A stretch of DNA of 64,000 nt from positions 1-64,000 of the IMG/VR virus record IMGVR_UViG_3300037067_007554. One strand, written 5' to 3'. The position numbers were made by a program, and so were the translations under genes. The DNA is from a virus (lineage: Duplodnaviria > Caudoviricetes). Below, piece by piece: positions 38,409 to 54,297 of the stretch (the first letter of the stretch is position 1; each line of letters opens with the position of its first letter). Below the pieces are notes generated by a model, which saw nothing but the letters and a program-made list of their open reading frames with translations, was not told the origin of the DNA and did not search any database.

Positions 38409-38425
38409 CCCCTTGGAGGTGTGTG

Positions 38426-38896: not shown

Positions 38897-39003
38897 CCCC
38901 CAGGGGCTTCGGCCCCGCTTCTACCCTCCTGCTGGGAGGGTGCAAGCGGCGTCAAAGTCCGGTTTTTCGACGAATCACGGCCCCTTGCAAAGGAGGTGTA
39001 CCC

Positions 39004-39372
39004 TTGTCGCACATCGTCAGTATCAAGACCGAGGTCCGCGACCTGGCCGCCCTCATGGCTGCCTGTCAACGCCTCAAGTTACCCGCCCCCGTGGTCGGAG
39101 AGCACAAGCTGTTCTCTGGCACCAAGACGGGGGCAGCCGTCCAGTTGCCCGACTGGCAGTATCCCGTGGTCACCGACCTCGGAACCGGGGAGTTGTCCTA
39201 CGACAACTTCAACGGTCACTGGGGAGATCAGAAGCACCTGGACGCCCTAAAGCAAGCCTACGCCGTGGCCAAGGCCACCATCGAGGCCCGCAAGCATGGG
39301 CATCGGGTGAGCGAAGTCAAGCAAGCGGACGGCAGTGTCAAACTGACCATCCAGGTAGGAGGTGTGGCATGA
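39004..39372 (+). CDS. DUF1257-family protein
   Basis: MSHIVSIKTEVRD..LFSG..VQLPDWQYPVV..YDNFNGHWG; TTG start with GGAGGTGT RBS. Confidence 0.8.
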   Translation: MSHIVSIKTEVRDLAALMAACQRLKLPAPVVGEHKLFSGTKTGAAVQLPDWQYPVVTDLGTGELSYDNFNGHWGDQKHLDALKQAYAVAKATIEARKHGHRVSEVKQADGSVKLTIQVGGVA

Positions 39373-39560
39373 GAACCATCGAAGTCCTAGTCAGCCCCAC
39401 GGGCGAAGTCGTCGTCACCACCAAGGGTTTCAAGGGCAAGTCCTGTCAGGACGCTAGCCGCCAGCTTGAGAAGGCCCTGGGCGTTCGGCAGAGCGAGAAG
39501 CTGACGACAGAGTACCACTGTGCCGCCAGCAGCACAACGCAGCAGGAGGCCCGGCAGTGA
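39369..39560 (+). CDS. DUF2997-family protein
   Basis: IEVLVSPTGEV...GFKGKSCQDAS..LEKALG..T.EY. Confidence 0.8.
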   Translation: MRTIEVLVSPTGEVVVTTKGFKGKSCQDASRQLEKALGVRQSEKLTTEYHCAASSTTQQEARQ

Positions 39561-39799
39561 ACGTCATCATCGACCAGCAGGGCAACCTGCGAACGATCTA
39601 CAACGAGGCCCTGGACCTGTCCGCCTGTGGAGAGGTGACTATCACCCGTGCCTCAAACGTGGAGTGGAGTCCTGGCATCGGATGGCACGCCTACATGGGC
39701 GAGCCTTTCAACATGGACGGCCCCGTCCTCGGCCCCTTCGCCAAGCGTAGCGAGGCGTTGGCGGCTGAGGTGGCGTTCATCGAGGAAAACGTGCTTTGA
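39557..39799 (+). CDS. conserved protein of the DUF1257/DUF2997 module
   Basis: IYNEALDL..ITRASNVE..GPVLGPF..RSEALAAEV. Confidence 0.75.
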   Translation: MNVIIDQQGNLRTIYNEALDLSACGEVTITRASNVEWSPGIGWHAYMGEPFNMDGPVLGPFAKRSEALAAEVAFIEENVL

Positions 39800-39873
39800 C
39801 AGTCACCAGACAGCCAGGGGTACGCCTGCTGTCCGTCCGGTCACTATCGAGTCCCCTTACGTGGAGGTGTGCC

Positions 39874-41349
39874 ATGCTTGGAGACGTGTTAGGGCAATAC
39901 CTCGATGCCTGTTTTTCTGGAGTCTACGTCCAGTCGGCGGAGCACGAGGACGCGATCAGCGAGGTATCGGCCCTATGTCGATGCCGCCAGTGGCAATTGG
40001 CCGTGTGGGACATGGCCGGCGGCTTGCAGATGAACGGGCAGAGCAACCCGGACATGAAAGACCCGCTAGCTGTCCTGGCAAGCCTGCCTGCGATGGCACC
40101 GAACGGTGAAGGGTCCGCCGTCATGCTCCTCCGCAACTTTCATGCGTTCATGGACAACCCAGAGATCGTGGCAGAGATGTGCCGCCAGATCGAGGCCGGC
40201 AAGGTACGGCGTACCTTCATCGTGGTCCTGTCGCCAGTGGTCAAGATCCCAGTGGAGTTGGAGAAACACTTCGTCGTGCTGGAGCACGAGTTGCCAGGAC
40301 GAACAGAGCTTGAAGCCGTCGCCCGTGGCATCGCCACCCGAGAGGGCGAGATGCCCGAGGGTTCCGACCTGGACAAGTTGCTCGATGCCTCCGCTGGCCT
40401 GACCCGGATGGAAGCCGAGGGGGCGTTCTCGCTGAGTCTGGTACGGGATGGCAAGCTCCATCCGGAGAGCGTGTGGGAACTGAAATCAGGAATGCTCAAG
40501 AAGACTGGTTGCCTGTCGCTGTACCACGGTACGGAGAGTTTCTCCGAGTTGGGAGGACTGGACAACCTGAAGGCTTTTACCTTCCGCGCGATTACCAGAA
40601 GCAAGGAAAAGGTACGCCCCAAGGGCGTCATGCTGCTGGGAGTGTACGGAACCGGCAAGTCGGCTTTTGCCAAGGCACTCGGTGCCGAAGTCGGCAGGCC
40701 AACCCTGGTCCTCACAAGCGAGCAAATCAAGACCTCGGCCTATGGCAAGAGCGAGGAGTTGATGGCCAAGTCCCTGAAGATTGCAGACATGATGGCCCCC
40801 TGCATCCTGTTTGTTGACGAGATTGAGGGACTTCTGGCTGGAGTGAACAAGGCTGGTGACCCTGGCGTAAGCAAGTCAATCGGAAAGGTGTTCTCAATCT
40901 GGTTGACTGACCACACCTCGGACGTTTTCGTCGTCGCCACCAGCAACGACATTTCCGACCTGCCAGGAGAGTTCACCCGTGCTGGTCGATTCGATGCCGT
41001 GTTCTTCGTGGACACGCCAGGCCGTGACCAGCGTGACATGATTTGGAAGATTCACGAGAAGAAGTACGGCATCGAGCCACAGGATCGCCCGGATGATACA
41101 AACTGGACTGGGGCGGAAATTGAGAGTGCCTGTCGGCTGAGTGCCTTGCTGGACGTTCCCTTGGTGGCGGCGGCAGACAACGTGGTGCCTGTGGTTGTAA
41201 CGCAGGCAGAGAAGATTGAGGCCATGAGGCAGTTTGCCGCAGGGCGTTGTCTGAATGCCGAGGCTACGGGTCGCTATCAGCGGGATGGCCAGCCAGTGGC
41301 TCGCCGCAACATCGAACGTGGTCCCACCACACAGCCGAGTACCAACTGA
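39874..41349 (+). CDS. Ycf46-like AAA+ ATPase
   Basis: Degenerate N-terminal AAA domain (LLRNFH); Walker A GVYGTGKS, Walker B ILFVDEIE, VATSND, SRH RAGRFD. Confidence 0.85.
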   Translation: MLGDVLGQYLDACFSGVYVQSAEHEDAISEVSALCRCRQWQLAVWDMAGGLQMNGQSNPDMKDPLAVLASLPAMAPNGEGSAVMLLRNFHAFMDNPEIVAEMCRQIEAGKVRRTFIVVLSPVVKIPVELEKHFVVLEHELPGRTELEAVARGIATREGEMPEGSDLDKLLDASAGLTRMEAEGAFSLSLVRDGKLHPESVWELKSGMLKKTGCLSLYHGTESFSELGGLDNLKAFTFRAITRSKEKVRPKGVMLLGVYGTGKSAFAKALGAEVGRPTLVLTSEQIKTSAYGKSEELMAKSLKIADMMAPCILFVDEIEGLLAGVNKAGDPGVSKSIGKVFSIWLTDHTSDVFVVATSNDISDLPGEFTRAGRFDAVFFVDTPGRDQRDMIWKIHEKKYGIEPQDRPDDTNWTGAEIESACRLSALLDVPLVAAADNVVPVVVTQAEKIEAMRQFAAGRCLNAEATGRYQRDGQPVARRNIERGPTTQPSTN

Positions 41350-41361
41350 GGAGAAAAACCC

Positions 41362-41389
41362 TTTACAAGTGCAGCGGTTATGGTAGAAT
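41362..41389 (+). promoter_or_regulatory. sigma70-like promoter for the HNH gene
   Basis: TTTACA-16 nt-TAGAAT with a TG extended -10. Confidence 0.65.
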
Positions 41390-41451
41390 GCGAGCGGCCC
41401 AGTTGGAGCTGGGCCGCTCTGAACACAAGCAACCTATGAAGGAGGTCGCTC

Positions 41452-42204
41452 ATGTCTGATGATGATTCTACCATCCCCCGTGGCTTCTGCCAGTGTGGCT
41501 GTGGACAAAGGACCAACCTGTACAAATCCACACGATGTCAACTCGGCCAGTTCAAGGGAGAGCCCCGCCCCTATATGCGGGGGCACCACAACCGAGCCCG
41601 AAAGCAAACACAGCAAATCGGATTTGAAGAGGGACTCCGGCGTGGTGCAGAAATGCCCCCTCTGCCAAATGTCACTGGAGTTGAGATTAGGCCCATCCCG
41701 GAATTTCCGGGGTACGCCATTGGTGACGATGGCACCGTATGGGGATGCCGCCACGCCTGGGGATTTCACAACTGCTGGCACTGCTTAGTCCCCTATTGGT
41801 ATGGTCGTCACAACAAGGTTAAGTATCTCGTCGTTGGTCTGCGTGCAACTGGAGCGAAGAAAAGAAAGAGGACGCTTGTGCACATCCTCGTCTTGTCAGT
41901 CTTTCGCGGACCGAAGCCCACTGGACAAGAAACCCGCCATTTGGATGGACACCCTGACAACAACAGGCTCAGTAACCTTGTCTGGGGAACGTCCCTGGAT
42001 AATACCGCAGACAAGATCAAGCACGGTCACGACTATTTCAAACCAGGTCAAGACCATCCCCAAGCGAAACTGACCACAGAGGCCGTTCTGGCCATCCGAA
42101 GTGACAGCCAAGCGAACTACAACGAGCTAGCCCTCAAATACGGGGTCTCGCCGTCACTGATTAGCCTTGTAAAGAAACGGAGGGCATGGAAGCATTTGCC
42201 GTGA
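41452..42204 (+). CDS. HNH homing endonuclease (NUMOD4-like + HNH + DNA-binding tail)
   Basis: CQCGCG, IPEFPGYAIGDDG, VHILVLSVF, RHLDGHPDNNRLSNLVWGT..N, AKLT. Confidence 0.9.
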   Translation: MSDDDSTIPRGFCQCGCGQRTNLYKSTRCQLGQFKGEPRPYMRGHHNRARKQTQQIGFEEGLRRGAEMPPLPNVTGVEIRPIPEFPGYAIGDDGTVWGCRHAWGFHNCWHCLVPYWYGRHNKVKYLVVGLRATGAKKRKRTLVHILVLSVFRGPKPTGQETRHLDGHPDNNRLSNLVWGTSLDNTADKIKHGHDYFKPGQDHPQAKLTTEAVLAIRSDSQANYNELALKYGVSPSLISLVKKRRAWKHLP

Positions 42205-42307
42205 ACTAGGTCGGGTGACACGACCCGAGCCCGAGTCCTCTGGATGGCCAGAGGGCCGGCACCCTGGCCGTTTGACCTGGGAACCCTAACCCTTTTGGAG
42301 GTGTACC

Positions 42308-43246
42308 ATGAGCGAGTTCGTCAATGCGTCAGACCGTGCCACCAGCCCCCGTGAGCGGCTGGAAGTCGAGTTCCTCGCAACCCGTGTGTCCTTCACTTGG
42401 CTGGGCGTTCGCCGGGCATTGGACCGGGAGCAAACAGCCCAGGCGGCCGAGTCCTTCGGCGCCGAGGGGCAGTTTTTGTCGGCAGCAAAAAAGCTGCTGG
42501 ACACGAAGCACCCGGCGTACAAAGCCGTGAGCAAGGTCAAGAGCCAGGCGGGAGGCTTTTGGAAGGGGATGAGCCTGCCCTTCCCGGAGCCCGGTCTGCG
42601 GCTGATCCGGCAGGAGGATCTGGACGGGTTCGAGTCTCGGATGGCCGGCTTCCGCCAGGCCCTCAACACGAACGTCGAAGCCCTTGACCAGGTGTTCTGG
42701 GAGTTGAAGGACAACGCCCGGCAGAAGTCGGGCCGCCTCTACAACTCCAGCGATCTGCCGGACAGCGTGCTCGGTGCCTTCTCCATCGACTGGAGCCTTG
42801 AGAACGTCGCCCCCCCGGACTATCTTCTGACTCTGCGGCCGGACCTGTACGAGCGGGAAGCCGCCCGGATTCGTGGCCAGTTCGAGCAGGCGGTAGTCCT
42901 GGCAGAGCAAGGATTCATCGCCGAGTTTCGCAAGCTGGTCGCCCACCTGACGGAGATGCTGACCGACAGCCCGGACGGCAAGCCCCGGCAATTCAAGAGC
43001 GCCTCGGTGGACAACCTCAAGGAGTTCTTCGAGCAGTTCAAGCGGCTGAGCGTGAGCGACAACGCCGACCTGGCGGAGTTGGTCGGCAAGGCCCAGAACC
43101 TCGTCAACGGGGTCAGTGCCGAGGCGTTGACCAACTACGACGTGCTCCGCCAGTTCGTCGGCGGCGAGATGGGCAAGGTACAGCAGAGTCTTGACAGCAT
43201 GATCGTTGACCGCCCCCGTCGCAACATCGTTAGAAAGGCACGGTGA
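42308..43246 (+). CDS. DUF3150-like coiled-coil protein
   Basis: RVSFTWLGVRR..SAAKKLLD..LPFPEPGLRL; GGAGGTGT RBS; known partner type of the Ycf46 module (recalled). Confidence 0.65.
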   Translation: MSEFVNASDRATSPRERLEVEFLATRVSFTWLGVRRALDREQTAQAAESFGAEGQFLSAAKKLLDTKHPAYKAVSKVKSQAGGFWKGMSLPFPEPGLRLIRQEDLDGFESRMAGFRQALNTNVEALDQVFWELKDNARQKSGRLYNSSDLPDSVLGAFSIDWSLENVAPPDYLLTLRPDLYEREAARIRGQFEQAVVLAEQGFIAEFRKLVAHLTEMLTDSPDGKPRQFKSASVDNLKEFFEQFKRLSVSDNADLAELVGKAQNLVNGVSAEALTNYDVLRQFVGGEMGKVQQSLDSMIVDRPRRNIVRKAR

Positions 43247-43250
43247 GCCC

Positions 43251-43334
43251 ATGAAACGCCTTACTCTCCACGTAGCGATGCTTGCCGTCCTCGTCGGCGT
43301 GCTGTACCTGCACTGGATTGCGATGGTGCGGTGA
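43251..43334 (+). CDS. 27-aa single-TM peptide
   Basis: MKRLTLHVAMLAVLVGVLYLHWIAMVR directly after the upstream stop. Confidence 0.45.
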   Translation: MKRLTLHVAMLAVLVGVLYLHWIAMVR

Positions 43335-43448
43335 CTTCCTACGCCTCCGTGGGAGAAGCACGGGGGCGAAATGAGTTCACCCTCAAACACACCTCCCCAG
43401 TCTGCCGTCCCTGGGTCAACAAAGGGCGGCAGGAAAGGAAAGAACGAC

Positions 43449-43817
43449 ATGGGATTAGACCTTACTGTGTGCCCCGTCAGCTATTTCAAGCAAGACTCAT
43501 GGCTGTGCTATGACCGTCTCGGCCTCAACCGCAACTACGAACTCTTCGCACAAATTGACGAGGAGAAATCCCGTATGCCCGCCATCGAAGCGGTGTGCGA
43601 TCCCAAGGATATTCCCCAGGGTAAGCGTGTCCACTGGTATGGAGACGATGGGCTAAAAACCATTACGGAAGACCCCTACGGATGCGGACTGACCTACGTG
43701 GACGCCCGTGAGTTTGCCAACGTCGAGCCCGGAGAGACAGGCGACTGGAACAAGGCCGTGCTTGCATTCCTCAAGGCCCTGCCGCCAGAGACGCCGATTG
43801 TGCTCTGGTGGCACTAG
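43449..43817 (+). CDS. conserved phage hypothetical protein (MGLDL..IVLWWH)
   Basis: AAGGA RBS; family-like termini. Confidence 0.7.
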   Translation: MGLDLTVCPVSYFKQDSWLCYDRLGLNRNYELFAQIDEEKSRMPAIEAVCDPKDIPQGKRVHWYGDDGLKTITEDPYGCGLTYVDAREFANVEPGETGDWNKAVLAFLKALPPETPIVLWWH

Positions 43818-44018
43818 ATACACACCTCCGGCTCCCGTGGGGACGGGGGCCAGCCCAGCGTCTTCGACGGCGAGGACGCTGGCCCGGCAAACCGTCCTGC
43901 CTTGAAACTGGACTTCCTCAAGATGAACCACCTCAATAGAATGCGTTTGCGTGCTTTGCGCCGCAGTGTGCCAGCGGGGGGAGCTGCCGACAACGGCTAT
44001 GATCCCCGCTGGCCTCTA

Positions 44019-44047
44019 TTGACATACCGCCAGCATTTGACTAGGCT
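44019..44047 (+). promoter_or_regulatory. sigma70-like promoter
   Basis: TTGACA-17 nt-TAGGCT. Confidence 0.6.
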
Positions 44048-44054
44048 TATCAAC

Positions 44055-44490
44055 GGTGTTGGGTTGTCGGCCCAGCACCCAAGAACCTCTGAAGGTGCAA
44101 AGCAACAATGCCAACAGCAACGCCACAAGGTTTCAGGCCAGCCCGTTATCCCGTGTGCCGTCAGGCACCAAAAAGGGCGCTGCCCGTTGAGTCGGGAAAA
44201 GGCGATGCCGCCAGTAAGGTTGCTGAGGACGTGCCCCCATCGGCACGGTGGCAAAGTGGGGTATCCAGCCCCCGAGGAAAGCCCGGCAACGGCACCGGGC
44301 AGGCCGACCGACGCTCACACAAAATCCCGGCAACGCTGGCCCAATTGCGCCCGGGTGCTCATGCTGCTCTCAAAGGCAGTCCCAGAACGTCGGATCGGCA
44401 CAGCCCAGTCAGCCAACATACTGACTGCCAATAGCTTCTCTCAGAGGCAAAATCAAGGCGCCCGCCCCCATGAGCGGAAAGGGGGCCGGT
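44055..44490 (+). ncRNA. candidate large structured RNA
   Basis: Starts at the predicted TSS with a 9-bp hairpin GGTGTTGGG/CCCAGCACC; long-range CCTCTGA (44086)/TCAGAGG (44441); several internal stems; no credible ORF. Confidence 0.4.
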
Positions 44491-44536
44491 CTACTCTTCT
44501 ATCAGCAACCACGACCCTAACCCGTGAGGTGAGAGA

Positions 44537-44779
44537 GTGACGAAGACTCAAGCAATGAAGAAGATTCGGAGCATGATGAAGCCGACCCGCGAGGCCATCC
44601 TGAAAGAAGCCGAACGCCTGCTATCCAGTGGGGCTATCGACGTGGAACGGGCAGACAATGACTACCGCCTGCCCGAACTGGTGCTGTGCGTTGCCCTGCA
44701 CAATGCGGCTTTTGACTGGGAACCGCCTTATGCCACGAAGGAAGACAAGCGGCTGATGAAGAACCTGTATCGGTTCTAA
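44537..44779 (+). CDS. hypothetical protein
   Basis: GAGGTGA RBS, GTG start. Confidence 0.7.
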   Translation: MTKTQAMKKIRSMMKPTREAILKEAERLLSSGAIDVERADNDYRLPELVLCVALHNAAFDWEPPYATKEDKRLMKNLYRF

Positions 44780-44879
44780 CGTAGCCCCTGACCCGGCCTC
44801 TCGCTGACAGCGATATGCCGCCAGCGAGTGAGCGGGCCAGTGTCCGTAACTTGCAACCCCTGGATTCGGAGGTGTGAAC

Positions 44880-45392
44880 GTGAGTTGCTTCGAGGTTGGA
44901 TCAACACATATTGACGCCCTGCTGACTGCCGGGCTGAACGTCGGCCGTTACGGCCCCCTACGATGGTACGTTCCAAGCGACGACACGGAGGGCGACTATG
45001 AGCAAGGCGAGCCCTGGGGACCGGAGGCAATCAAGCACTACCAGCAACGGCGACGTGAGTTGACGGAGGAGACGGCCGGCATGGTAGGTGCCATGCTGGT
45101 TGCGGAGAACCGCCGCAGTGTTGATTACCGCTACGATGAGGCCGAGGAAGAGGAGCCCTACGTGTTCAACGCACTCCAAGGGCGCCCCGATCCCGTGGTT
45201 GTGCTGAAAGCAATCGCCTGCTATGAGTACCAGGCGTGCGAGACGCCGGACTGGGAGGAGTCCGAGGCGTATGCGTTCTGCCAGGCCCTCCGGCATCGCA
45301 TGATCGGTGCCCTGCCGGGCTACGATGATGCCGATGGCTGGGAGGTCTCCGACCGGAGGGTGTTCCTGAAACAGGTCGGCGTTGTCCACTAG
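44880..45392 (+). CDS. conserved phage hypothetical protein (HIDALL..ENRRSVDYRY..LKAIACYEYQACE family)
   Basis: GGAGGTGT RBS; recognisable motif. Confidence 0.75.
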   Translation: MSCFEVGSTHIDALLTAGLNVGRYGPLRWYVPSDDTEGDYEQGEPWGPEAIKHYQQRRRELTEETAGMVGAMLVAENRRSVDYRYDEAEEEEPYVFNALQGRPDPVVVLKAIACYEYQACETPDWEESEAYAFCQALRHRMIGALPGYDDADGWEVSDRRVFLKQVGVVH

Positions 45393-45480
45393 CCGATGGC
45401 TCGACACGCCCCCTCATCGCCCAGTCTATCGAGGCTGGGCGAGGATGGTGTTTGTCCGCTAGCCCTTAGAGAGGTGCAAG

Positions 45481-45693
45481 ATGACTATTGAAATTATCCG
45501 ACGTTACATCGAGGGGTCGTGCCAACAACAAGACGGCACCCTTGATACCGATGCCGCCAACAAGACACTTTGCCGGCTGACCCGAGCAGGTGACGAGGAA
45601 ACCCGTCATGCTGCCGGCCTGATGTGGTCCGCCTACTTAGCGTCAGACCTGTCAGAGCACGACGCCATGCTCCAGGTCATTCACGGAGTCTAG
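45481..45693 (+). CDS. hypothetical protein
   Basis: GAGGTG RBS. Confidence 0.65.
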   Translation: MTIEIIRRYIEGSCQQQDGTLDTDAANKTLCRLTRAGDEETRHAAGLMWSAYLASDLSEHDAMLQVIHGV

Positions 45694-45723
45694 CGTTTAC
45701 CCCATGTCCCTTAGAAGTGTCCC

Positions 45724-46272
45724 ATGATTACGCAAGCAGTTCCCGACTACATGACCTTCCAATACTGGTACGACCTGCCAGTCAAACGGAAAAAGTGGCC
45801 CTACAAGAGCCTGGATGATTGGGTGGCGAGAAATCCAGGTCGGGCGGCAGGTGTTGCCCACTTCGCACCGCAGGTCGTTCGGTACTATACGAGTGGTACT
45901 TTTGGCCCAGGTGGAACCGGCGATGCAAACTGGCGTCCCATGGGGGCTCAACGGGAAATCACACTGGCTGAGTACCATGAGTTAGTTGAAACTCCACTTT
46001 GGGAACGTCCCGCAGTCATGCCCGTGTGGCGTGGTGCCACCGACCTGACGCCGATACGCAAGAATGGGAAGAAATCCAAGCCGATCAAGGTGAAGGTTGC
46101 CGCCGTCCACCAGGTCACAGCCGCTCGTTGCCAACCTGCGCCCATGCCGCCAGTGAAGCCGACCATCGAGCAGCGATACGCCAACTACTGCGGGGCGTGC
46201 TCGATGCTGGAGAAGCCCCCTGAGGACATGGGGGTGTGGATGCTACGGATGGCGGGGATGGGAGTGCTGTAG
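45724..46272 (+). CDS. hypothetical protein
   Basis: 182-codon ORF in operon orientation. Confidence 0.6.
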   Translation: MITQAVPDYMTFQYWYDLPVKRKKWPYKSLDDWVARNPGRAAGVAHFAPQVVRYYTSGTFGPGGTGDANWRPMGAQREITLAEYHELVETPLWERPAVMPVWRGATDLTPIRKNGKKSKPIKVKVAAVHQVTAARCQPAPMPPVKPTIEQRYANYCGACSMLEKPPEDMGVWMLRMAGMGVL

Positions 46273-46388
46273 TTGCAGTACGTGAGACACGACAGTAGCT
46301 TACAGGAGTACCTTCCCGCCCCAGAGGGCTCTACGGAGCCCGAAGGGATGGAGAGTTACGAAACACCACTACACGAAAGGCGAGAACC

Positions 46389-46679
46389 ATGCCCCTAAAC
46401 CTGTACGAAGACTCAAAGGAAAATCGTGTGCTGTGTAACTGCTGTGCGGCCAGCCGTGGGCTGTGCAAGAACCGCCTGGACACTGCCGACGACGACGCCG
46501 AATGCGAGGACTGCGGGTTGAACGTCTTTGAGGAGCGGATCGCCGCTTGTGTTGAACAGGCGAAGGCGGCCGGATTCGAGGTGTTCACCAGCGATAACAA
46601 GCTCGTCGTACAGAAGCCGCTCCAAATCCAGAACCAAACGGCGGGATACGACAATCGAGCCGAAGCGGCCGGGCTGTAG
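46389..46679 (+). CDS. Cys-rich hypothetical protein
   Basis: CNCC..C..CEDCG. Confidence 0.6.
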   Translation: MPLNLYEDSKENRVLCNCCAASRGLCKNRLDTADDDAECEDCGLNVFEERIAACVEQAKAAGFEVFTSDNKLVVQKPLQIQNQTAGYDNRAEAAGL

Positions 46680-46756
46680 CCGGTCCCCGCCCCGCCCGGC
46701 GAAGCATTCAGCGGGGGCCGACAACTGAGCCCGAGTGACAACTAAGGAGGTGCGAA

Positions 46757-47038
46757 ATGATGCACTGGCAATATGACGATGTGTATGGAAAGTATCTTGG
46801 TCATCCAACGCCCTGCGTGGTGTTCCACGAGATCGACCCAGCCAGCGATCAACCCGGAAACGCCGGCATGGTCTGTGAGAACATCAGCCGGCCAGAATGG
46901 GGACACCTGATTGAAGCCGCCCCGCGAATGCTGGAGCGACTACGGGCGATCCTCACCGCCTACGACGCAAATGACAGCCACAGCGTCCGTGAGGAAATTG
47001 AGAATGCCCGCTCCATCGTCGCCAAGAACACCGTCTGA
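46757..47038 (+). CDS. phage protein with LIEAAP.ML motif
   Basis: AAGGAGGT RBS; resembles the widespread ..LIAAAP.LL family. Confidence 0.7.
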   Translation: MMHWQYDDVYGKYLGHPTPCVVFHEIDPASDQPGNAGMVCENISRPEWGHLIEAAPRMLERLRAILTAYDANDSHSVREEIENARSIVAKNTV

Positions 47039-47153
47039 CGGTCCCCACCTCACCCCGGTGTGGCGCCCGGGGCCTGGCGGTGACCGTCAACGCGGGGGAC
47101 AGACCTCCGCACTCGCCCGCTGAGTGAGCGGGAAAAAAAACGGGAGACGAGCC

Positions 47154-47372
47154 GTGAGAGTAACAATCGACGAACAGGGCCGCGGCCTGCAGATCCGACC
47201 AGGCGTGGACGTGGGCGCCTACGGTCTGGGCCTGGCTCCTGGGGATCGCGTCTGGGTGCCGCGAGCCCAAGCGTGGGGGCGAGTGGTGAGTATCGGGACC
47301 CGCATCGAGAGTGGGACGCCCGGCACCGGGCAAAGCAACCGCGTCCGAGGCGAGGTTGAGATCGAATCGTAG
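47154..47372 (+). CDS. cassette gene 1, hypothetical
   Basis: GGAGACGAG RBS after repeat 1; GTG start. Confidence 0.6.
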   Translation: MRVTIDEQGRGLQIRPGVDVGAYGLGLAPGDRVWVPRAQAWGRVVSIGTRIESGTPGTGQSNRVRGEVEIES

Positions 47373-47418
47373 CGAGCCAACTCGCCCGCTGAGTGAGCGG
47401 GGCAAGGAGACGAGAGAG

Positions 47419-47748
47419 ATGATTACTGATGAAAGAATCCGCGACATTTTGGCCCGCTGCACGGTGGACGGCAAACACACATCGGGCGGCGACGGCAAGC
47501 TGCCAGCGAAGGACCGGGGGTTCTGCCCGATCGACGGCGTGCCAGACGAGACAATCGGCGTGCAGCAAGTCCGCGATGCGATTTCCCGTGTGGTTGTGGA
47601 CGGCCGCGATGATGATCGAGACATCCTCGACGCAATCGAGGCCGCCTACGATGTGGCGTGGCTCGATTTCTGCGCGCGAGAACATCCAGACTGGGTGCGA
47701 TCCGCGGTGGATGACGTGTGCTTCACTGCCTCACTGTCCAACACCTAA
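47419..47748 (+). CDS. cassette gene 2, hypothetical
   Basis: AAGGAG RBS after repeat 2. Confidence 0.7.
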   Translation: MITDERIRDILARCTVDGKHTSGGDGKLPAKDRGFCPIDGVPDETIGVQQVRDAISRVVVDGRDDDRDILDAIEAAYDVAWLDFCAREHPDWVRSAVDDVCFTASLSNT

Positions 47749-47797
47749 CGCCCCCAGGCACTCGCCCGGGAGACGCCGGGAAGAAGGAGATGAGACG

Positions 47798-48004
47798 ATG
47801 AAATGGTACGAGAAAAACGACGTGGTGGCTGAACTGGTCAAGCGATTCCCCGAAGCCGACCCCGGACCCGCAGGGCTGTGGGGATTCGTCAACGCAGGAT
47901 GGGAGGGGCCAGTTGACGACAACGACCTGGACAACTGGGCCGAGGCGTGGAAAGACGCCGAGCAGGACTGGGCCGAGGCGTGGAAAGGCACCGGAGGCGG
48001 TTAG
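47798..48004 (+). CDS. cassette gene 3, small acidic Trp-rich protein
   Basis: AAGGAGATGAGACG-ATG after repeat 3; WAEAWK twice. Confidence 0.7.
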   Translation: MKWYEKNDVVAELVKRFPEADPGPAGLWGFVNAGWEGPVDDNDLDNWAEAWKDAEQDWAEAWKGTGGG

Positions 48005-48061
48005 AAACCACCCACCACCAAGCACTCGCCCGCAGAGTGGAGCGGGAAAAGGAAAGATGAG

Positions 48062-48403
48062 ATGACGACCAAAGCGCAACTTGGAATCACCCCCGAGTTT
48101 TTGCGATTCACGGATGCCGTAGCCTACCTGACGTGGTCTCTGAGCGGGCATCCCCCCTATCCCGCATCGGCGGCTCCGGGCCTGGCGGGGGAGGCGGTCG
48201 CCCTGCTGCCAGCATTTCGCCACTGGATGATCGCCAACGAGTGGGCAATGACGGAGGCTCAGCAACTCCGCGACATCCTCGACGTCCACCCGGAGTTGGG
48301 CTATTGGGACACGACGCCGATGTCGGCTGATGTGTTGCAGGCAATACGGATTTTTGAGTTGTCCCGAGACGATGCTGTCCGATTGCTGGGCGGCTCGCCG
48401 TAA
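48062..48403 (+). CDS. cassette gene 4, hypothetical
   Basis: RBS after repeat 4. Confidence 0.7.
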   Translation: MTTKAQLGITPEFLRFTDAVAYLTWSLSGHPPYPASAAPGLAGEAVALLPAFRHWMIANEWAMTEAQQLRDILDVHPELGYWDTTPMSADVLQAIRIFELSRDDAVRLLGGSP

Positions 48404-48474
48404 CCGCCGCAAGGCACTCGCCCGCAGAGAGGAGCGGGGCCGGCACCGGGTGACGAGGTGCAGGAGATGAGACC

Positions 48475-48873
48475 ATGCGTAAGGTATACCGCACCGTGAA
48501 AGAGGCCCGCAACGCCCTCGCCCTGGACACCGGGTTTGACCCATTCCACACGGGCTACGTCAAAGGACGTTGCACCAAGATCGCTCTCGCGCGGCTCGGC
48601 TATCCGGTAGACAAGAAACTCGCGGAGCAACAGGCAGCCGAGCGGCGACGAAAGCTCCTGACGTCCGCAGAAGCAGAGAGCCTGCTCCGCCCAGTCGGCC
48701 GCTGTGCCAAGGGCCACATGTGGTCCGTGGACCAGCACGGGCGCGATTGCCCAGAGTGTGGCGGACCCGAGATCATGGATATGGAGTGTGACAACGGGCA
48801 CAAATGGAAGGCCGCCTACAATGCCGGGCCTGAGTCCGATAAATGCCCAAAATGCGGAGAGTATTACGTGTAG
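48475..48873 (+). CDS. cassette gene 5, C-terminal Zn-ribbon protein
   Basis: AGGAGATGAGACC-ATG; CAKGH..CPECG..CDNGH..CPKCG. Confidence 0.75.
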   Translation: MRKVYRTVKEARNALALDTGFDPFHTGYVKGRCTKIALARLGYPVDKKLAEQQAAERRRKLLTSAEAESLLRPVGRCAKGHMWSVDQHGRDCPECGGPEIMDMECDNGHKWKAAYNAGPESDKCPKCGEYYV

Positions 48874-48994
48874 CACGGTCCCCGCCTCGCCCTGGTACTG
48901 CCAGCCCGGGGCCTGGCGGTAACCGTCCGCGGTGGCGCATGACCTCCGCACTCGCCCGCAGAGTAAGTTGGAGCCAAAAAGGGGAGACGAGACG

Positions 48995-49153
48995 ATGGAC
49001 GCCACACATCATGGCATGACGATTCTCGCCGTGCGCGAGATTGAGACTGGACAAATCGAAACGTATGAATGTCTAAACTACGACACGGCGCGCGCTCGCA
49101 GCGGCCGACCACGGCAACGATCCCGAGGACTGGGAGCCGGCGGAATCCGCTGA
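48995..49153 (+). CDS. cassette gene 6, short hypothetical (possibly truncated)
   Basis: GGGGAGACGAGACG-ATG after repeat 6. Confidence 0.5.
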   Translation: MDATHHGMTILAVREIETGQIETYECLNYDTARARSGRPRQRSRGLGAGGIR

Positions 49154-49174
49154 GTGATTTACGGGGTGAGAGAC

Positions 49175-49516
49175 ATGGGTAGGCCATCAAGAATATGGAC
49201 ACGTGCGCAACGACGACTGCTTGGTACTGTGCCCGATGCAGTCGCCGGCGCAAAACTCGGGTGCTGCGCCTCGACCGTCCGAAACTGGCGACGACGCTGG
49301 GGGATCGCCGGGTATTCCGAAGGTCCGCGTTGTACCGCCGTGACGAACGATGCGATCTTCGTTGGAATCTGGTGGTCGAGCGCGAATACTGAGGAGGTGG
49401 AAGTCCGCCTCAATCTCACCACGAGGCAGGTACGCAGCCAGAGCATCCGATTGCGCAGACATGGCGTGGTGCTAAAAGCGATGCCACGGCATCGGCGGCG
49501 CAAACCAATTTTCTGA
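49175..49516 (+). CDS. tandem HTH-like DNA-binding protein
   Basis: WT.AQRRLLGTVPD...GAKLGC..STVRNWRRRWGI pattern. Confidence 0.65.
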   Translation: MGRPSRIWTRAQRRLLGTVPDAVAGAKLGCCASTVRNWRRRWGIAGYSEGPRCTAVTNDAIFVGIWWSSANTEEVEVRLNLTTRQVRSQSIRLRRHGVVLKAMPRHRRRKPIF

Positions 49517-49584
49517 CCTGCAAATTTCCTGAAACGAGACTCGCCCGCTGAGTGAGCGGGGCAAGGGCAAAAGGAAAACCAAAC

Positions 49585-49785
49585 ATGACTATGACGTTGT
49601 CCGACATCCACTACAGGCTGAACACAATGCAGTCGAGCAAGCAGGCGTTCGACGTGCGAGATGAACTCATCGAGCTAACGCGGATCGTCAGCGACATGCA
49701 CGCCGCGCTGGGCGACCTGTCGCGAAAGGTCGAAAGACTCACGGAAGCAGCGGCCAAAGCGTCTTGCCAATGCCCTCTGACTTAG
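49585..49785 (+). CDS. cassette gene 7, coiled-coil hypothetical
   Basis: AAGGA RBS after repeat 7. Confidence 0.65.
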   Translation: MTMTLSDIHYRLNTMQSSKQAFDVRDELIELTRIVSDMHAALGDLSRKVERLTEAAAKASCQCPLT

Positions 49786-49807
49786 CCCACGAAAACAGAG
49801 GTGAACC

Positions 49808-50062
49808 ATGCGAACGCGAGAAGAACTCCGCGAGTGGCTGTGCGGTGAGATCGTCGATGTCATGGACAGCTACGATTGCAATGAGGACTCTGCTCGGCAA
49901 CACATTCGTGACATGCTCGTCGAGGGGCAGGACAGCTATAGCGACGTGACGGATGATGAGGTGCCGGTAGTGCTACGGCTAATTGAATCAGGAAGGAAAA
50001 GCGGCAAGAAGGGCAAGACCACCAAGCCCAAGAATCGGCACTCGTGGAATCGGAACTCGTGA
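49808..50062 (+). CDS. hypothetical protein (acidic N-terminus, basic tail)
   Basis: GAGGTGA RBS. Confidence 0.65.
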   Translation: MRTREELREWLCGEIVDVMDSYDCNEDSARQHIRDMLVEGQDSYSDVTDDEVPVVLRLIESGRKSGKKGKTTKPKNRHSWNRNS

Positions 50063-50126
50063 AAGAATGTGAAGGAACTCAATACCAAGCACTCGCCCGG
50101 GAGAGCCGGGTAAAGGAGATGAGACG

Positions 50127-50516
50127 ATGAGGATACAAGAGACACGCCGACTGCGGCAGTATGCAGTCTGCCAAACAGCACAAATCCAGGCACCGATGCT
50201 GGACCGACCCGTGACGCAACCAGAACACTGGAGTGACGAGGCGGCGGAAGCGGCCAAGCGAAGCGGCTATATCGTCTACTTTGCACTCGCAACCACTGGA
50301 GAGAGTCTCTGGGATTTCGAGCGATTCGCCCATGTCCCCATGGAGCACGCTCATCCCGTGGAGGTGCTCGACCACGTCCGAGCCTCAGCTCCGCCGTGGT
50401 GGGATGCAGACTCGGCAATCTACGCTTCGTATCGCGGAGGGCCTTGGTATCCGCGCGATTGGGATGAGGTTCTCGGAAAAATGGAAGTTCCACCCGCAAT
50501 GGTAATCGACGAGTGA
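50127..50516 (+). CDS. cassette gene 8, hypothetical
   Basis: AAGGAGATGAGACG-ATG after repeat 8. Confidence 0.7.
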   Translation: MRIQETRRLRQYAVCQTAQIQAPMLDRPVTQPEHWSDEAAEAAKRSGYIVYFALATTGESLWDFERFAHVPMEHAHPVEVLDHVRASAPPWWDADSAIYASYRGGPWYPRDWDEVLGKMEVPPAMVIDE

Positions 50517-50573
50517 TAGGGCGTTGTCTCGGGTTGTTGGCAAGGGGATGCCGGATTCATGGGGATCGACTAG

Positions 50574-50756
50574 ATGACAAACTACCAAGAGAAACGGACC
50601 ATCGAATTGTTGGACAGCATGGCGGAATCTATCGTCATGGCGAAGCCCGGCGACCGCGATAGCTTCGTGAGGGCAGTCGCAATCCTGCACTACTTGATCT
50701 GGGAGTCCCGGAAGATTCTCGACCTGCCGGATTTCCCCGGCCTGGACCCCTTGTAA
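50574..50756 (+). CDS. hypothetical protein
   Basis: Operon-tiling ORF. Confidence 0.55.
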   Translation: MTNYQEKRTIELLDSMAESIVMAKPGDRDSFVRAVAILHYLIWESRKILDLPDFPGLDPL

Positions 50757-50806
50757 GGAAGTGCTACGGCTTATCCACTCAGGAAGGAAAAAGGAGTAAT
50801 CACACT

Positions 50807-51004
50807 ATGACGAAATCTGATACGATCACAGTTACGCGATCAACGGACGAGGATGCCTCGGCCGTTGCCGCCCGCGCCGCGAAGAAAGCGGGGACGATGG
50901 TCGCCGGCAATTTGCGATGGTACGGTGCCAGGGGGCCAGCCTATCGAGAGGTACCCACGCGCGACGGCCGGACGGTCCGGGTCTGCGAGCCGATGGTCGA
51001 TTAG
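50807..51004 (+). CDS. hypothetical protein
   Basis: AAGGAG RBS. Confidence 0.6.
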   Translation: MTKSDTITVTRSTDEDASAVAARAAKKAGTMVAGNLRWYGARGPAYREVPTRDGRTVRVCEPMVD

Positions 51005-51128
51005 TGGAATGTCGGCGGTTGCGTGGGCTTGCGTGTTAGTGTCGGTCAGTGTCGGTCAGGTCGGGCGGAACCGGTCCGCAGAGAATCGCTCGGGTATACG
51101 AAAACACGTAGGTTTGTCCCATCCCTAC

Positions 51129-51156
51129 TTGACAGATGGTTCGCCGGTAGTACAAT
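51129..51156 (+). promoter_or_regulatory. strong sigma70-like promoter
   Basis: TTGACA-16 nt-TACAAT; TTTGTCCC motif just upstream (51113-51120). Confidence 0.75.
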
Positions 51157-51187
51157 AGCACGACCAGCCAACCAAGGAGCAAGTACC

Positions 51188-51376
51188 GTGGCTATTCTCG
51201 ATGGCAAACACGTACCGCCAGAAAACATTCGACCCTAGCGGCACCGACTCGTTGGCAAGTATCGGCCCCCTGAGCCGCCAATGGGGATGCCGCCAGCAAT
51301 TGCCATTCCCCTCTACCATGCCGGCGTGTACGACGAGGCAGTCTACGTCAGCCAGACCAAGGAGCGAGTAAAATGA
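51188..51376 (+). pseudogene. ORF with in-frame TAG at 51236-51238
   Basis: AAGGAG RBS + GTG 51188; the same frame ends in an ATGA overlap with the next gene. Confidence 0.4.
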
Positions 51377-51639
51377 GTCCTAGACGACCCGACCCGCCGA
51401 GCCCAGGGCAAGAGTACATTGGCAGGCAGGGAATGTACGCGATACGTTCCCGCTATCCCGACCAGCAGACCGGCGACGAAGAGTTGATCTTTCCAGTCCG
51501 CGTTACGGCGGTGAAGAAACGGTTCGGGCGGCTGTACTTCTTCATCACGCCAGTCGGCGGGGAGAATCACTGGTGGGTCGAGGACAAGATGGTGAAGTTC
51601 TCCTGTTCGGACGAGCCTTCGACCAACGGGAAGGAATAG
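51373..51639 (+). CDS. hypothetical protein (SH3/KOW-like beta pattern)
   Basis: YIGRQG..FPVRVTAVKKRFGRLYFFITPVGG...WV. Confidence 0.7.
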   Translation: MSPRRPDPPSPGQEYIGRQGMYAIRSRYPDQQTGDEELIFPVRVTAVKKRFGRLYFFITPVGGENHWWVEDKMVKFSCSDEPSTNGKE

Positions 51640-51658
51640 GGCAATCCTTTGGAAGAAT

Positions 51659-51898
51659 GATTCAAGAGCGAGGAAGTTGGGTAGGCTAAAACACGGCGAC
51701 CGGCCAAGTCTGCAAATCGCTCAGAGAGCCGCTGGGCGAGAAACGGACGCAGTACGCCACCGGCTTGTTAATCCGGCAGTCCCAACTTTCTCGCTCTTGA
51801 ATCAATCGCCCGGCTGCACTCGGGGAACTAAGGCCCTTAAAGGCTGATTGGCGCTACACACCTCGCGTCTCAGCTACCGTGCAGTCGGGCGTTTTTTT
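51659..51898 (+). ncRNA. candidate structured RNA / attenuator leader
   Basis: 23-bp stem 51659-51681/51781-51803 (one G-U) enclosing a multibranch domain; 13-bp stem 51807-51819/51879-51891 followed by T7. Confidence 0.6.
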
Positions 51899-51908
51899 GG
51901 ACCATCCG

Positions 51909-52130
51909 ATGCCAACTACACAAACATCCGCTGACCTCATGCCGCCAAAGGTGCCTCCTCTAGTTGCTACCAACTGGCCAGAAGACATCCAACGACTGGG
52001 CGATGCGATTGCAAAGTTGTCGGTCGAAAAGGCTCAAGAGTTGAAGGCGTATTTGGAAAGTAAGAAGATCGTGACGCCGGCAAGGGTGACCGAATCATGC
52101 AACGGGAAAACAGCCCCATCCAACTCGTAA
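51909..52130 (+). CDS. ribosomal protein bL12 (L7/L12) N-terminal-domain-like protein lacking the C-terminal domain
   Basis: WPEDIQRLGDAIAKLSVEKAQELKAYLE matches the recalled planctomycete bL12 NTD pattern I..LGD.I..L....A.EL..YL; ATG at 51909 or 51939. Confidence 0.65.
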   Translation: MPTTQTSADLMPPKVPPLVATNWPEDIQRLGDAIAKLSVEKAQELKAYLESKKIVTPARVTESCNGKTAPSNS

Positions 52131-52423
52131 AGTCTTCCATCAAGGCCCTCAAGCAGGAAGGCTTCAAGGAGGACTCTGGCACGTACAGGGCCCGCCTTCT
52201 GTATGCTCGAACCGTTGTGAAGAAAGACGATAGCGTGGAGATTCAATTTGCCCAACGGTCAACCTTCGACAGGTGGACTAACAGCACAAACTTCCGCGTG
52301 ACCATTGCAGCAAATTACAGAGGCCCCGTCAATCTCAAGCCCGCTGTGACACTAGCTCGAAGAATCTGTCGGTCCGGTGTCTTCGACTTTAACACCTACT
52401 TTCACACCATCGACCTTAGCTGA
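52097..52423 (+). CDS. hypothetical protein
   Basis: Operon-tiling ORF. Confidence 0.55.
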   Translation: MQRENSPIQLVKSSIKALKQEGFKEDSGTYRARLLYARTVVKKDDSVEIQFAQRSTFDRWTNSTNFRVTIAANYRGPVNLKPAVTLARRICRSGVFDFNTYFHTIDLS

Positions 52424-52467
52424 ATCAATTCAATTGAATCAGCCCTCCGACCCTTACGGAGCCCCTC

Positions 52468-53568
52468 ATGACGGTGCAGCCCCTCGTCAATTACAACCGC
52501 ATCGAGCCAACGGACGCCTCCCCGCTGCTGGCCCTGCCTTTCGGCGACTTCTCCGGCGCTCTCTATCAGCCGTTCATCGCGTACTCCGTGTCCTATCGCC
52601 ACACCGCCGCCCAGCGAACGCTCCCCTGGATTCGCAGCATGAACCGCGATACCTTTCCCATGACGACCGAGGAGACGGTCCGCTGGCTGAAGGAAAAGCA
52701 CAACGTTCACGCCAACGGCAAAGAAATCGTCCGATGGGAGGAGGCCGCATTGAACTGGGTTCGCCCGATAGGGACAACGGCCTGGCCGTACATCCGCGTG
52801 TCGGAACGCAGGTCAAGTTTCAGTGGAATCTCCCTAGAGACGCAGCGAGCGGAAATTGTCCGGTACTACGCCAGACGATTCACGGACGGGACGATCGGCA
52901 TGGGGCCTGTATTCTCCGACCCGTCCGTCAGTGCCTCCAAGACAGAGTTCCGCCATCGACGCGGCGGCATGGCCCTATCGCTGCTGATACGACCCGGAGA
53001 TCACATCCTTTTTGCGAGACTGGACCGTGGGCTGCGGTCTGTTTACGATGCCTCCGTGTGCTGGCACGAATACTGGCAACCAAAGAACATCACGCCCCAC
53101 TTTCTCGACCTTGGCATCGACCTGACGACGGCCCATGGGCAACTGGTCTTCAACATCATGGTAGCCGTTGCCCAGAGCGAGAGCGATATCAAGTCAGAGC
53201 GGATGAAGGGCATCGTCAAGACGATGAAGGAAAACCACCGTCCCATGGCCTACGCTCCACTGGGCTGGAAGAAACAGGGGCAGGGCAAGAACGCTCGCCT
53301 GGTAAAGGATGAGCCCACACGGGTCATCATGCGGGAAATTTACCGCCTTCGCGAAGAGGAGCACAAGTCCTTCTGGCAGATCAGCGACATCATCGAGCAA
53401 CGCATCTGCCAGTTCGCGGGTCGCCTCTACACGAAGTCGGCATGGCAACCTAGGCTGTGGAACTACAAGCGGTGCGAGAAGGCATGGTTCAGGTGGGGCG
53501 AGATTCTTAGGGATGAGTACCTGCGAGTCCCTGCGTCAGAGAAACCGCCGGCGATAGAGGGGAGTTGA
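52468..53568 (+). CDS. serine recombinase (resolvase/invertase catalytic domain + recombinase-like C-terminus) with an N-terminal extension of about 105 aa
   Basis: YIRVS catalytic motif, SLETQ, FSDPSVSA, RLDRGLRS, IDLTTAHGQLVFNIMVAVAQSE, APLGW. Confidence 0.88.
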   Translation: MTVQPLVNYNRIEPTDASPLLALPFGDFSGALYQPFIAYSVSYRHTAAQRTLPWIRSMNRDTFPMTTEETVRWLKEKHNVHANGKEIVRWEEAALNWVRPIGTTAWPYIRVSERRSSFSGISLETQRAEIVRYYARRFTDGTIGMGPVFSDPSVSASKTEFRHRRGGMALSLLIRPGDHILFARLDRGLRSVYDASVCWHEYWQPKNITPHFLDLGIDLTTAHGQLVFNIMVAVAQSESDIKSERMKGIVKTMKENHRPMAYAPLGWKKQGQGKNARLVKDEPTRVIMREIYRLREEEHKSFWQISDIIEQRICQFAGRLYTKSAWQPRLWNYKRCEKAWFRWGEILRDEYLRVPASEKPPAIEGS

Positions 53569-54297
53569 CTCTTCTTCTGCCCTGCCAGCAAGAACCGGCA
53601 CCGTCTCTGCCTCGCGATGGTAGAGGGCATCGGCATCTTCTGCCGTGCGTCCCCAGGGTAGGTCCGGGTACTCAATGATGTTTACCTGGCACGTTACCGT
53701 CACCGCAATCTGCAAGGGCGAGACGGAGATGATTCGGTCAAGAGCAAGTGCTGGAGGGACAACAGTAACGGTCACTGCCAGAGGATTCAAACTGACAGAA
53801 ACCGCCTTGGTAATCGTGGGCTGAACAATAGTTGCTGCGATTAGCAGCGGTGAGACAGAGACCGAAACCCCCACCGCAATCGTCGGAGGAACAACAGTAA
53901 TAACACAAGGCAATGCCGCCAGCGAGACCGTCGTGCCTACAGAGACCGTCGGAGGAACGATAGTCGCTTGAATCTGAACAGGACTTGGGGTGACAGTCAC
54001 CCCGACGGAGACGGCCGGGGGGACCACGGCGATTGCCAGGGAGACTGCTGGCAGGCCAACCGTGGTCCCCGCCGAGACCGCTGGAGGAACAACTGCAACG
54101 GCTAACGGCATGGGAGGCGACGAAACAGTCACCCCTACCACAATCGCAGGCGGGACTACCGTGGCTTGAATCGCCACGGGGTCTGGTGTGACCGTCACGC
54201 CGACCAAGATTGCTGGCGGTACAACGGTGACCATAATCGCAATCGGGTCAATCCCGAGCGATGCAGTGACGCCAGTCCCAATGTACCACCACCACAT
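53536..54297 (-). CDS. Val/Pro/Thr 22-aa-repeat virion fibre protein
   Basis: About 9 repeats of P...(V/I)TVVPPA(I/V).VG.TV. Confidence 0.65.
   Translation of the reverse strand: MWWWYIGTGVTASLGIDPIAIMVTVVPPAILVGVTVTPDPVAIQATVVPPAIVVGVTVSSPPMPLAVAVVPPAVSAGTTVGLPAVSLAIAVVPPAVSVGVTVTPSPVQIQATIVPPTVSVGTTVSLAALPCVITVVPPTIAVGVSVSVSPLLIAATIVQPTITKAVSVSLNPLAVTVTVVPPALALDRIISVSPLQIAVTVTCQVNIIEYPDLPWGRTAEDADALYHREAETVPVLAGRAEEESTPLYRRRFL

Follow-up and report, generated by a model that had tools for sequence, protein, structure and literature searches.

Eight consecutive small genes in the virus record IMGVR_UViG_3300037067_007554 (Duplodnaviria; Caudoviricetes) are each headed by a copy of a short hairpin-containing module. 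The window analyzed here is the first 64 kb (64,000 nucleotides) of this linear record of 89.5 kb, for which CheckV gives a completeness of 87%. We consider it probable, though well short of certain, that the module is a portable cis-acting RNA leader that acts on translation or mRNA fate and serves secondarily as a seam for recombination. As proposed here, it would consist of a single-stranded (A)CUCG, a 5-bp hairpin that always carries GAG in its loop, and a purine-rich Shine-Dalgarno (SD) tract, with the hairpin placed at the 5' edge of the ribosome-binding site (RBS) of the following gene. Most carriers would hold the module once, several of them within the leader of a strong host-type early promoter, and in the present phage the module, but not the promoter, would have spread to eight consecutive small ORFan genes (nine originally) in one plus-strand early region.

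The 9-mer ACTCGCCCG occurs eight times in the window, always on the plus strand and within 47111-50099 (starts at 47111, 47380, 47760, 48024, 48416, 48950, 49539 and 50091), against a chance expectation of 0.97 and with none of 100 shuffles giving eight. The other 25.5 kb of the record hold only two further 9-mers, chance-looking and lacking the hairpin, and two covariance models run unfiltered over all 89.5 kb return the same eight sites and nothing more. Every copy follows the same order of a stop codon, 7-76 nt, (C/A/G)ACTCG, a 5-bp GC stem, the loop, the 3' arm, a purine run and a start codon (ATG or GTG). The loop is 5-8 nt long with GAG included, the whole unit spans 20-23 nt, and the tract before the start codon is usually GGAGAYGAGAC. 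The copies are the following.

47111-47132, plus strand: leader copy 1, with ACTCG, CCCGC, loop TGAGTGA and GCGGG, then an A-run, GGGAGACGAG and GTG at 47154.
47380-47401, plus strand: leader copy 2, core as in copy 1, 7 nt past the stop codon at 47370-47372; ATG at 47419.
47760-47780, plus strand: leader copy 3, stem CCCGG/CCGGG and loop GAGACG; ATG at 47798.
48024-48046, plus strand: leader copy 4, CCCGC-AGAGTGGA-GCGGG, which is the commonest environmental form; ATG at 48062.
48416-48438, plus strand: leader copy 5, loop AGAGAGGA, with an added small hairpin (48443-48461) before the SD; ATG at 48475.
48950-48972, plus strand: leader copy 6, 5' half whole and 3' arm gone; heads the open reading frame (ORF) at 48995-49153.
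49539-49560, plus strand: leader copy 7, core and 3' flank equal to copy 2 over 28 nt; ATG at 49585.
50091-50110, plus strand: leader copy 8, stem CCCGG/CCGGG and loop GAGAG, RBS tract equal to that of copy 3; ATG at 50127.

These leaders fall into subtypes A (copies 1 and 6), B (copies 2 and 7, identical over 28 nt), C (copies 3 and 8) and D (copies 4 and 5), and the subtypes are ordered A-B-C-D-D-A-B-C along the array though the genes differ. The upstream block of each type A copy is a long GC hairpin that lies directly after a stop codon, ~20 nt 5' of the leader.

47037-47088, plus strand: long imperfect GC hairpin upstream of copy 1, no U-tract.
48873-48927, plus strand: second instance of the long GC hairpin, upstream of copy 6, no U-tract.

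A C-to-U difference between the two long hairpins preserves a G-U pair on the plus strand only. An initial annotation of the window, made from its letters and ORFs, had described the eight hairpin copies, their placement between stop codon and RBS and the unrelated ORFs that follow, all of which is confirmed. With up to 2 mismatches allowed, the literal pattern that it gave matches only two copies, since the loops differ in length (5-8 nt); the copies themselves are as it described them.

Firstly, the stem is maintained by compensatory change. Four stem types are found, with pairing kept in all of them: CCCGC/GCGGG, CCCGG/CCGGG, CCGAC/GTCGG (L213, G006, L229, L230, L231, L237, L241 and L242) and CCACC/GGTGG (L232), where the G and L handles denote relatives carrying the module. 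The CCGAC and CCACC variants retain the ACTCG flank (GCTCG in L241), the GAG loop and the AGGCAAAGG tail. In two counted alignments 100% of the cells are paired and double changes occur in 2 of 5 pairs per alignment; at most 1 of 500 shuffles matched the observed pairing or covariation, and all slid registers drop to 22-52% paired. The replacement of CCCGC/GCGGG by CCCGG/CCGGG in copies 3 and 8, pointed out in the initial annotation, is real, and its addition brings the number of stem pairs that vary in a compensatory manner to 3 of 5. Since these two copies share identical flanks, the replacement counts as one evolutionary event, and relatives are needed for real covariation. The covariation of the stem thus indicates an RNA-type structure. 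The only invariant positions are the CUC of the flank and the GAG of the loop, which could form a pseudoknot-type contact with each other.

Several other pairings were considered and rejected. The longer register CUCGC with GCGGG, preferred by RNAfold for the commonest form, is broken in the CCGAC and CCACC variants. Two mutually exclusive folds had been proposed in the initial annotation, the second pairing CACUC with GAGUG; this second fold can be drawn for some copies but is broken in the stem variants and is not kept in the GAGAG, GAGGG and GAGGA loops. Pairing of CUCG with a YGAG right after the SD is predicted in some copies and is not general, as YGAG is present in only about half of the instances. 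A CsrA-type GGA loop site is ruled out by the TGAGTGA loops, which lack GGA. A whole-record duplex scan for an antisense RNA to the leader revealed no complement that stood out beyond the array itself, and the structured region at 51659-51898 did not rank among the best. Neither the window nor ten relatives gave a match in Rfam 15 at the gathering score (low-score matches only in the window, with E values of 0.57 and 3), in agreement with the earlier description of the repeat as unrecognized, and none of the papers searched contains the motif sequence.

Secondly, the module is portable. Relatives were collected by exact and degenerate pattern scans of viral contigs and metagenome stretches; loose hairpin patterns on viral contigs gave mostly chance matches in coding DNA. 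True copies came from 27 metagenome stretches and from viral contigs, among them G001 (87.6 kb), G002 and G003-G013. About 45 viral and metagenome contexts besides the present one contain the leader unit, which always lies on the sense strand of the downstream ORF, just 5' of its RBS. The 39 downstream proteins first collected form 31 clusters, and at least 30 unrelated gene families are headed by the module. One module subtype, together with ~50 nt of its upstream block, stands before four different genes (L191, L209, L211 and L213), while a single zinc-ribbon family (L201, L209 and L230) is headed by different subtypes, and BLASTN matches between contigs are often confined to the 45-113 nt module. 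Compared as sequences, these contexts show the module reassorting with its cargo genes. Different cargo between conserved repeats across relatives is what the initial annotation had looked to as support for its proposal. The leader-headed gene with the GCTCG flank (L241:6371-7399) encodes a DUF932 protein.

Copy number in the relatives is low. Ten other viral records carry one significant copy apiece, two of them being complete genomes with terminal repeats (72.8 and 50.3 kb), and two adjacent cassettes are seen in the fragments G002, G006, L195, L200, L208, L213 and L216; the largest array found is that of the present phage, with eight copies plus a relic. These numbers bear on the proposal of an integron/attC-type platform, in which the hairpins would be sites where a recombinase such as that encoded at 52468 captures or excises single-gene cassettes. 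A run of single unrelated ORFs parted by a folded repeat, with a serine recombinase 2 kb downstream, has the look of such a platform. However, integron attC sites are imperfect palindromes of 55-140 bp with R/L boxes, placed 3' of their ORF and at no set distance from the next start codon, whereas the present unit is 20-23 nt long with a 5-bp stem, lacks attC-type R/L boxes and stands at a near-fixed distance from the RBS of the next gene. No IntI-type tyrosine recombinase is adjacent to the array, the nearest recombinase being the serine enzyme (52468-53568) and the tyrosine integrase lying at ~86.5 kb; neither co-occurs with the motif in other carriers, no homologue of the serine recombinase being found near the motif there. 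With ten viral records carrying a single copy and the motif sitting in a promoter leader in several relatives, we give the integron proposal of the initial annotation hardly any credence.

The carriers also have little else in common. Across 13 carrier records, which range from 49.5 to 66.8% GC, ORF clustering finds no protein family in more than 5, and there is almost no overlap between G000 and G001. It is therefore unlikely that all carriers encode the same reader, and any partner is probably host machinery. Small genes of the XRE-type with a helix-turn-helix (HTH) domain do occur near the motif in six contigs and are weakly related to each other.

Thirdly, the unit is positioned relative to the start codon and, in several relatives, to a promoter. 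Over ~40 non-redundant instances, the distance from the end of the hairpin to an SD-led start codon is usually 13-21 nt, and most of the longer spacers (copy 5, L198, L208 and L242) contain a small hairpin of their own; both the spacing and the self-folding of the long spacers fit a constraint of RNA geometry near the RBS. Among 49 non-redundant instances, each searched over the 100 nt upstream, five show an 11-12 of 12 match to TTGACA-N16/17-TATAAT that ends 19-51 nt before ACTCG, a score that only 24 of 20,000 windows drawn at random from the same DNA attain. The same arrangement is seen at the contig end of L242 (TATAAT 31 nt upstream), so that promoter followed by hairpin is found in L198, L225, L229, L230, L232 and L242. 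These upstream promoters indicate that the motif normally resides in the 5' leader belonging to a strong host-type promoter. In L198, L225, L229, L230 and L232 the promoter regions (~110 nt upstream of the motif) have operator-like repeats in common (tattttg..gaaaatcc, ggaaattcc and gctaggcac), and the sharing of these repeats and of the promoter boxes (TTGACR/TATAAT) by unrelated contigs suggests that the whole promoter-operator-leader block may be a mobile unit. A scan of the array (47000-50500) found no sigma70-like promoter site in or before the copies. Just 3' of the array, at 51129-51156 on the plus strand, lies a near-consensus sigma70-type promoter, TTGACA-16-TACAAT, the sole site of this quality in the record.

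Taken together, the comparisons establish, at the level of sequence, a unit that is structured, linked to the start codon and portable, that is predicted to be transcribed, and that is very probably not a promoter. A conserved block of ~23 nt that is strand-specific, precedes genes and is repeated in an early region could nonetheless be read as a phage-specific promoter before each early gene, of the T7-like 23-nt or N4-like DNA-hairpin kind, and the N4 virion RNA polymerase does use small hairpin promoters. The large ORFs tested include no RNA polymerase family, the carriers have no protein in common, the motif lies 19-51 nt 3' of a near-consensus sigma70 promoter in five to seven relatives, and tight start-codon spacing with self-folding spacer inserts is a feature of the RNA level, all of which make such a promoter very unlikely. 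Promoter function, one of the alternatives raised in the initial annotation, is thus not supported, given the full sigma70-type promoter 5' of the motif in relatives and the lack of promoter-like sequence at the array copies. Its further suggestion of a repeated RNA or translational switch unit is essentially right, given the covarying hairpin, the near-fixed start-codon distance and the promoter-leader position in relatives, and its interpretation as a whole is partly supported.

The leader position in relatives is shared with processive antitermination signals (nut/boxB-, put- or LoaP-leader-like), in which a hairpin in the early leader would load a factor onto RNA polymerase. One copy per genome just after the main early promoter of relatives fits such a signal, the 5-bp GC stem with its purine-rich loop resembles boxB, and a host-encoded or absent partner would account for the lack of shared phage proteins. 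Lambda-type nut sites likewise combine a short GC hairpin and a purine-rich loop in the leader of an early operon, and they normally number one or two per genome. They differ in having boxA and N, whereas the ACUCG flank is not boxA-like and no N-like or shared small basic protein is seen; moreover, antitermination sites need no set distance to a start codon, which the present motif has, eight copies in 3.4 kb would be unnecessary, and no terminator-like sites stand out downstream. Antitermination is accordingly an unlikely function for the motif.

The relatives also resemble acr-aca operons in their architecture. In these operons Aca1 and Aca2 bind 5' untranslated region motifs in which an operator-bearing strong promoter is followed by a covarying hairpin after the start site at a conserved distance from the start codon (PMC13551039), and small genes without assigned function lie downstream, as in the relatives. 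An Aca-like HTH autoregulator might then bind the hairpin and shut off translation of the early, possibly anti-defence, gene after a first burst. Small XRE-type HTH genes in the same operon in 6 contigs, and a weak HTH match in the array ORF 49175-49516, are in line with this. However, HTH genes can be expected wherever early genes lie, the operators of the promoters are unlike the hairpin, and the RNA motif stays near-identical between phages in which the neighboring HTH protein is only distantly similar or missing, so that no co-variation of protein and RNA is seen. The motif has no common Aca-like protein and is far more conserved than any neighboring protein, eight tandem copies in one operon have not been described for Aca motifs, and a covarying hairpin directly 3' of a strong promoter is found in six relatives and in none of the array copies. 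We regard such autoregulation as improbable, to about the same degree as antitermination.

A role in intercistronic processing or stability is somewhat less remote. Cleavage at or near ACUCG would leave a new 5' end protected by the hairpin, while the type A long hairpin would protect the upstream 3' end. The unit lies between stop codon and RBS, a GC hairpin ends 0-3 nt before ACUCG in many relatives, and the long hairpins at 47037-47088 and 48873-48927 still pair through their G-U change. On the other side, 6 of the 8 array copies have no upstream hairpin, the promoter-proximal copies of relatives are already near a 5' end, and no nuclease is common to the carriers. We hold this to be a minor possibility, and it is not exclusive of a leader acting on translation or mRNA fate. 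Intrinsic termination is not indicated, as a terminator scan found no plus-strand site at the units and the hairpins are followed by A-rich or purine-rich runs in place of a U-tract.

The closest known systems, besides nut sites and Aca-bound hairpins, are the start-associated sequences (SAS) and extended start-associated sequences (ESAS) of Cluster K mycobacteriophages and the promoter early stem-loop (PeSL) elements of T4-type phages; none fits as a family. Like the present motif, SAS/ESAS are short, strand-specific, immediately 5' of start codons and overlapping the RBS, they are limited to the non-structural part of the genome and precede different gene families, and SAS are absent from the host genome; their function is thought to concern translation initiation (PMC3203893). 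They differ in that SAS have a 13-nt consensus, GGGATAGGAGCCC, at 3-7 nt from the start, against GGAGAYGAGAC and an upstream hairpin here, and ESAS have 17-bp inverted repeats whose departures do not support RNA pairing, while the present stem covaries cleanly. SAS number 11-19 per genome in one phage cluster, whereas the present motif is usually single-copy and extends across unrelated phages. PeSL are repeated small regulatory units flanking ORFans in a plastic early region, common to genomes whose flanking genes differ and hence possible points of homologous exchange (PMC2839356, PMC4122927), and the leader motif too is found at the boundaries of swapped unrelated genes. Shuffling in the style of PeSL, invoked in the initial annotation, agrees with the finding that the same subtype heads different genes and the same family carries different subtypes, but the unit contains no promoter. 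PeSL place a terminator-like stem-loop before an early promoter, while the array copies have no promoter and in the relatives the promoter precedes a hairpin that is tied to the RBS and lacks a U-tract. Membership among integron attC sites, intrinsic terminators or phage-polymerase promoters is excluded by the features tested.

How the module might act is suggested by its invariant bases. The hairpin carrying them would act on translation initiation and/or on survival of the mRNA of the downstream gene, and since the carrier phages have no protein in common it would most likely either dock a conserved component of the host or form a compact CUC:GAG pseudoknot. A bolder version, which we hold as a tentative minority view, is that the 23-nt unit is a self-contained mini-pseudoknot, with CUC:GAG stacked on the 5-bp stem, read directly by the ribosome or RNA polymerase and giving privileged expression to the first-expressed genes of many unrelated phages as a cross-phage "expression plug". 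If so, the plug could be copied before any new gene, as it was here eight times. As a by-product of a cis-acting leader of either kind, identical modules of 25-110 nt would provide seams for homologous exchange of early genes, which is plausible because the phage encodes RecT and RecE; recombinases of this type need only short homology.

Several points weigh against a portable leader acting on translation or mRNA fate. All the relatives were retrieved with patterns holding ACTCG or the stem, and the conservation of these elements thus owes something to the way of retrieval; when ACTCG was not required, two scans returned 12 loci, 11 with ACTCG and 1 with GCTCG. With both CUC and GAG invariant, the contact between them offers no test by covariation. 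Single leaders have ordinary RNAfold z-scores (-2.0 to +0.8), which is no surprise with a stem of only 5 bp. Transcription across the array is presumed, and the fixed SD-proximal position taken alone fits an enhancer, a repressor site, a stabilizer or a processing site alike. Exact copies are also essentially absent from 185,579 species genomes, where the single match (L190) is compatible with chance. It lies in a proteobacterial metagenome-assembled genome (contig CAWDOW010000009.1, 1133-1158, minus strand), 8 nt 5' of the start codon of a 327-aa ORF that has no family, and downstream of DUF2948 and EPSP-synthase-fold genes, a setting of ordinary chromosomal genes, and the rest of that genome has no convincing copies. 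This copy is possibly a chance or isolated case, and its position before an RBS is typical of the motif.

The cargo of the array consists of ten small ORFs without homology among themselves.

47154-47372, 47419-47748, 47798-48004, 48062-48403 and 48475-48873, plus strand: the first five cargo ORFs, all small.
48995-49153, 49175-49516, 49585-49785, 49808-50062 and 50127-50516, plus strand: the other five cargo ORFs, all small.

Apart from the weak HTH match in 49175-49516, no family was found for them in Pfam or PHROG, and cargo gene c8, the one cargo gene searched against 5.8 billion proteins, matched only itself. ORF c6 (48995-49153) is headed by the decaying copy 6, whose loss of the 3' arm, recorded in the initial annotation, is confirmed, and it matches a G006 protein that is likewise headed by the leader motif. 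Relative to its homologue (L226:8052-8213; 41% identity over the N-terminal 33 residues) ORF c6 is frameshifted, the conserved C-terminal LAA.DHG.DPEDWE of the homologue running on in another frame and ending at 49155-49157. The frameshift would mean that the gene has become a pseudogene or that the assembly is wrong in a GC run. Immediately beyond lies the remnant of a further leader.

49147-49170, plus strand: relic of a ninth leader, CCGCTGAGTGA...CGGGG, before the ATG at 49175 (compared with L226:8052-8274).

It is a credible relic: comparison with a homologous cassette pair in G006 shows a deletion at this point, by which ORF c6 was joined at its end to the interior of the following leader, so that the relic now stands in front of the HTH-like gene. 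The array originally had nine leaders, and it shows the module multiplying inside one genome as well as degenerating, the latter in copy 6 and in the relic at 49147.

The initial annotation had also listed degenerate copies at 38549 and 44826; unlike the relic at 49147-49170, these resemble parts of the leader only and fall under the covariance-model threshold. The first (38546-38600) reads CCCGC..AGAGTGG..GCGGG followed by CCGACTGAGTG and the second (44815-44843) reads CGAGTGAGCGGG; both are intergenic and lack ACTCG, and they may be old relics. A short motif, (A/G)TGCCGCCAG, recurs many times on the plus strand of the early region (36000-54000; repeat families D8, D10, D13, D15, D17 and D18), one copy lying directly 5' of the leader-like remnant at 44826.

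In the window as a whole, the left 26 kb encode, on the minus strand, large ORFs with glycosyltransferase and methyltransferase domains. A plus-strand block (~27-53 kb) then carries an AAA_25 primase/helicase-like gene, an AAA ATPase, an HNH endonuclease and many small ORFs, the array being located in the small-ORF portion, and terminates in the serine recombinase gene (52468-53568, 2 kb 3' of the array). Beyond the window the record encodes DnaB, RecT, RecE, a DNA methyltransferase and a tyrosine integrase (~86.5 kb). An atlas search with DnaB for the host returned mixed phyla only, and no host was assigned from it. Other features of the window are a T-rich 10-nt unit (TGTCCTTTCG-like) in five head-to-tail copies (38348-38416), a 66-nt periodic repeat (53792-54228) within the minus-strand ORF 53536-54297, which would encode a repetitive protein, and a tRNA-like gene called by ARAGORN (37003-37093) with an undetermined four-base anticodon.

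The leader is a candidate new cis-regulatory RNA motif, the novelty lying in the motif and in its spread across unrelated phages. Its presence in phages that are otherwise almost unrelated points to a conserved reader on the host side, and it would offer phages a simple route for making newly acquired genes expressible. If it proves to be a context-independent element of translation or stability, it may be useful as a compact expression part. The leader would also mark immediate-early genes of uncultured phages. The genes so marked are ORFans, and immediate-early ORFans are the usual place for host-takeover and anti-defence functions.

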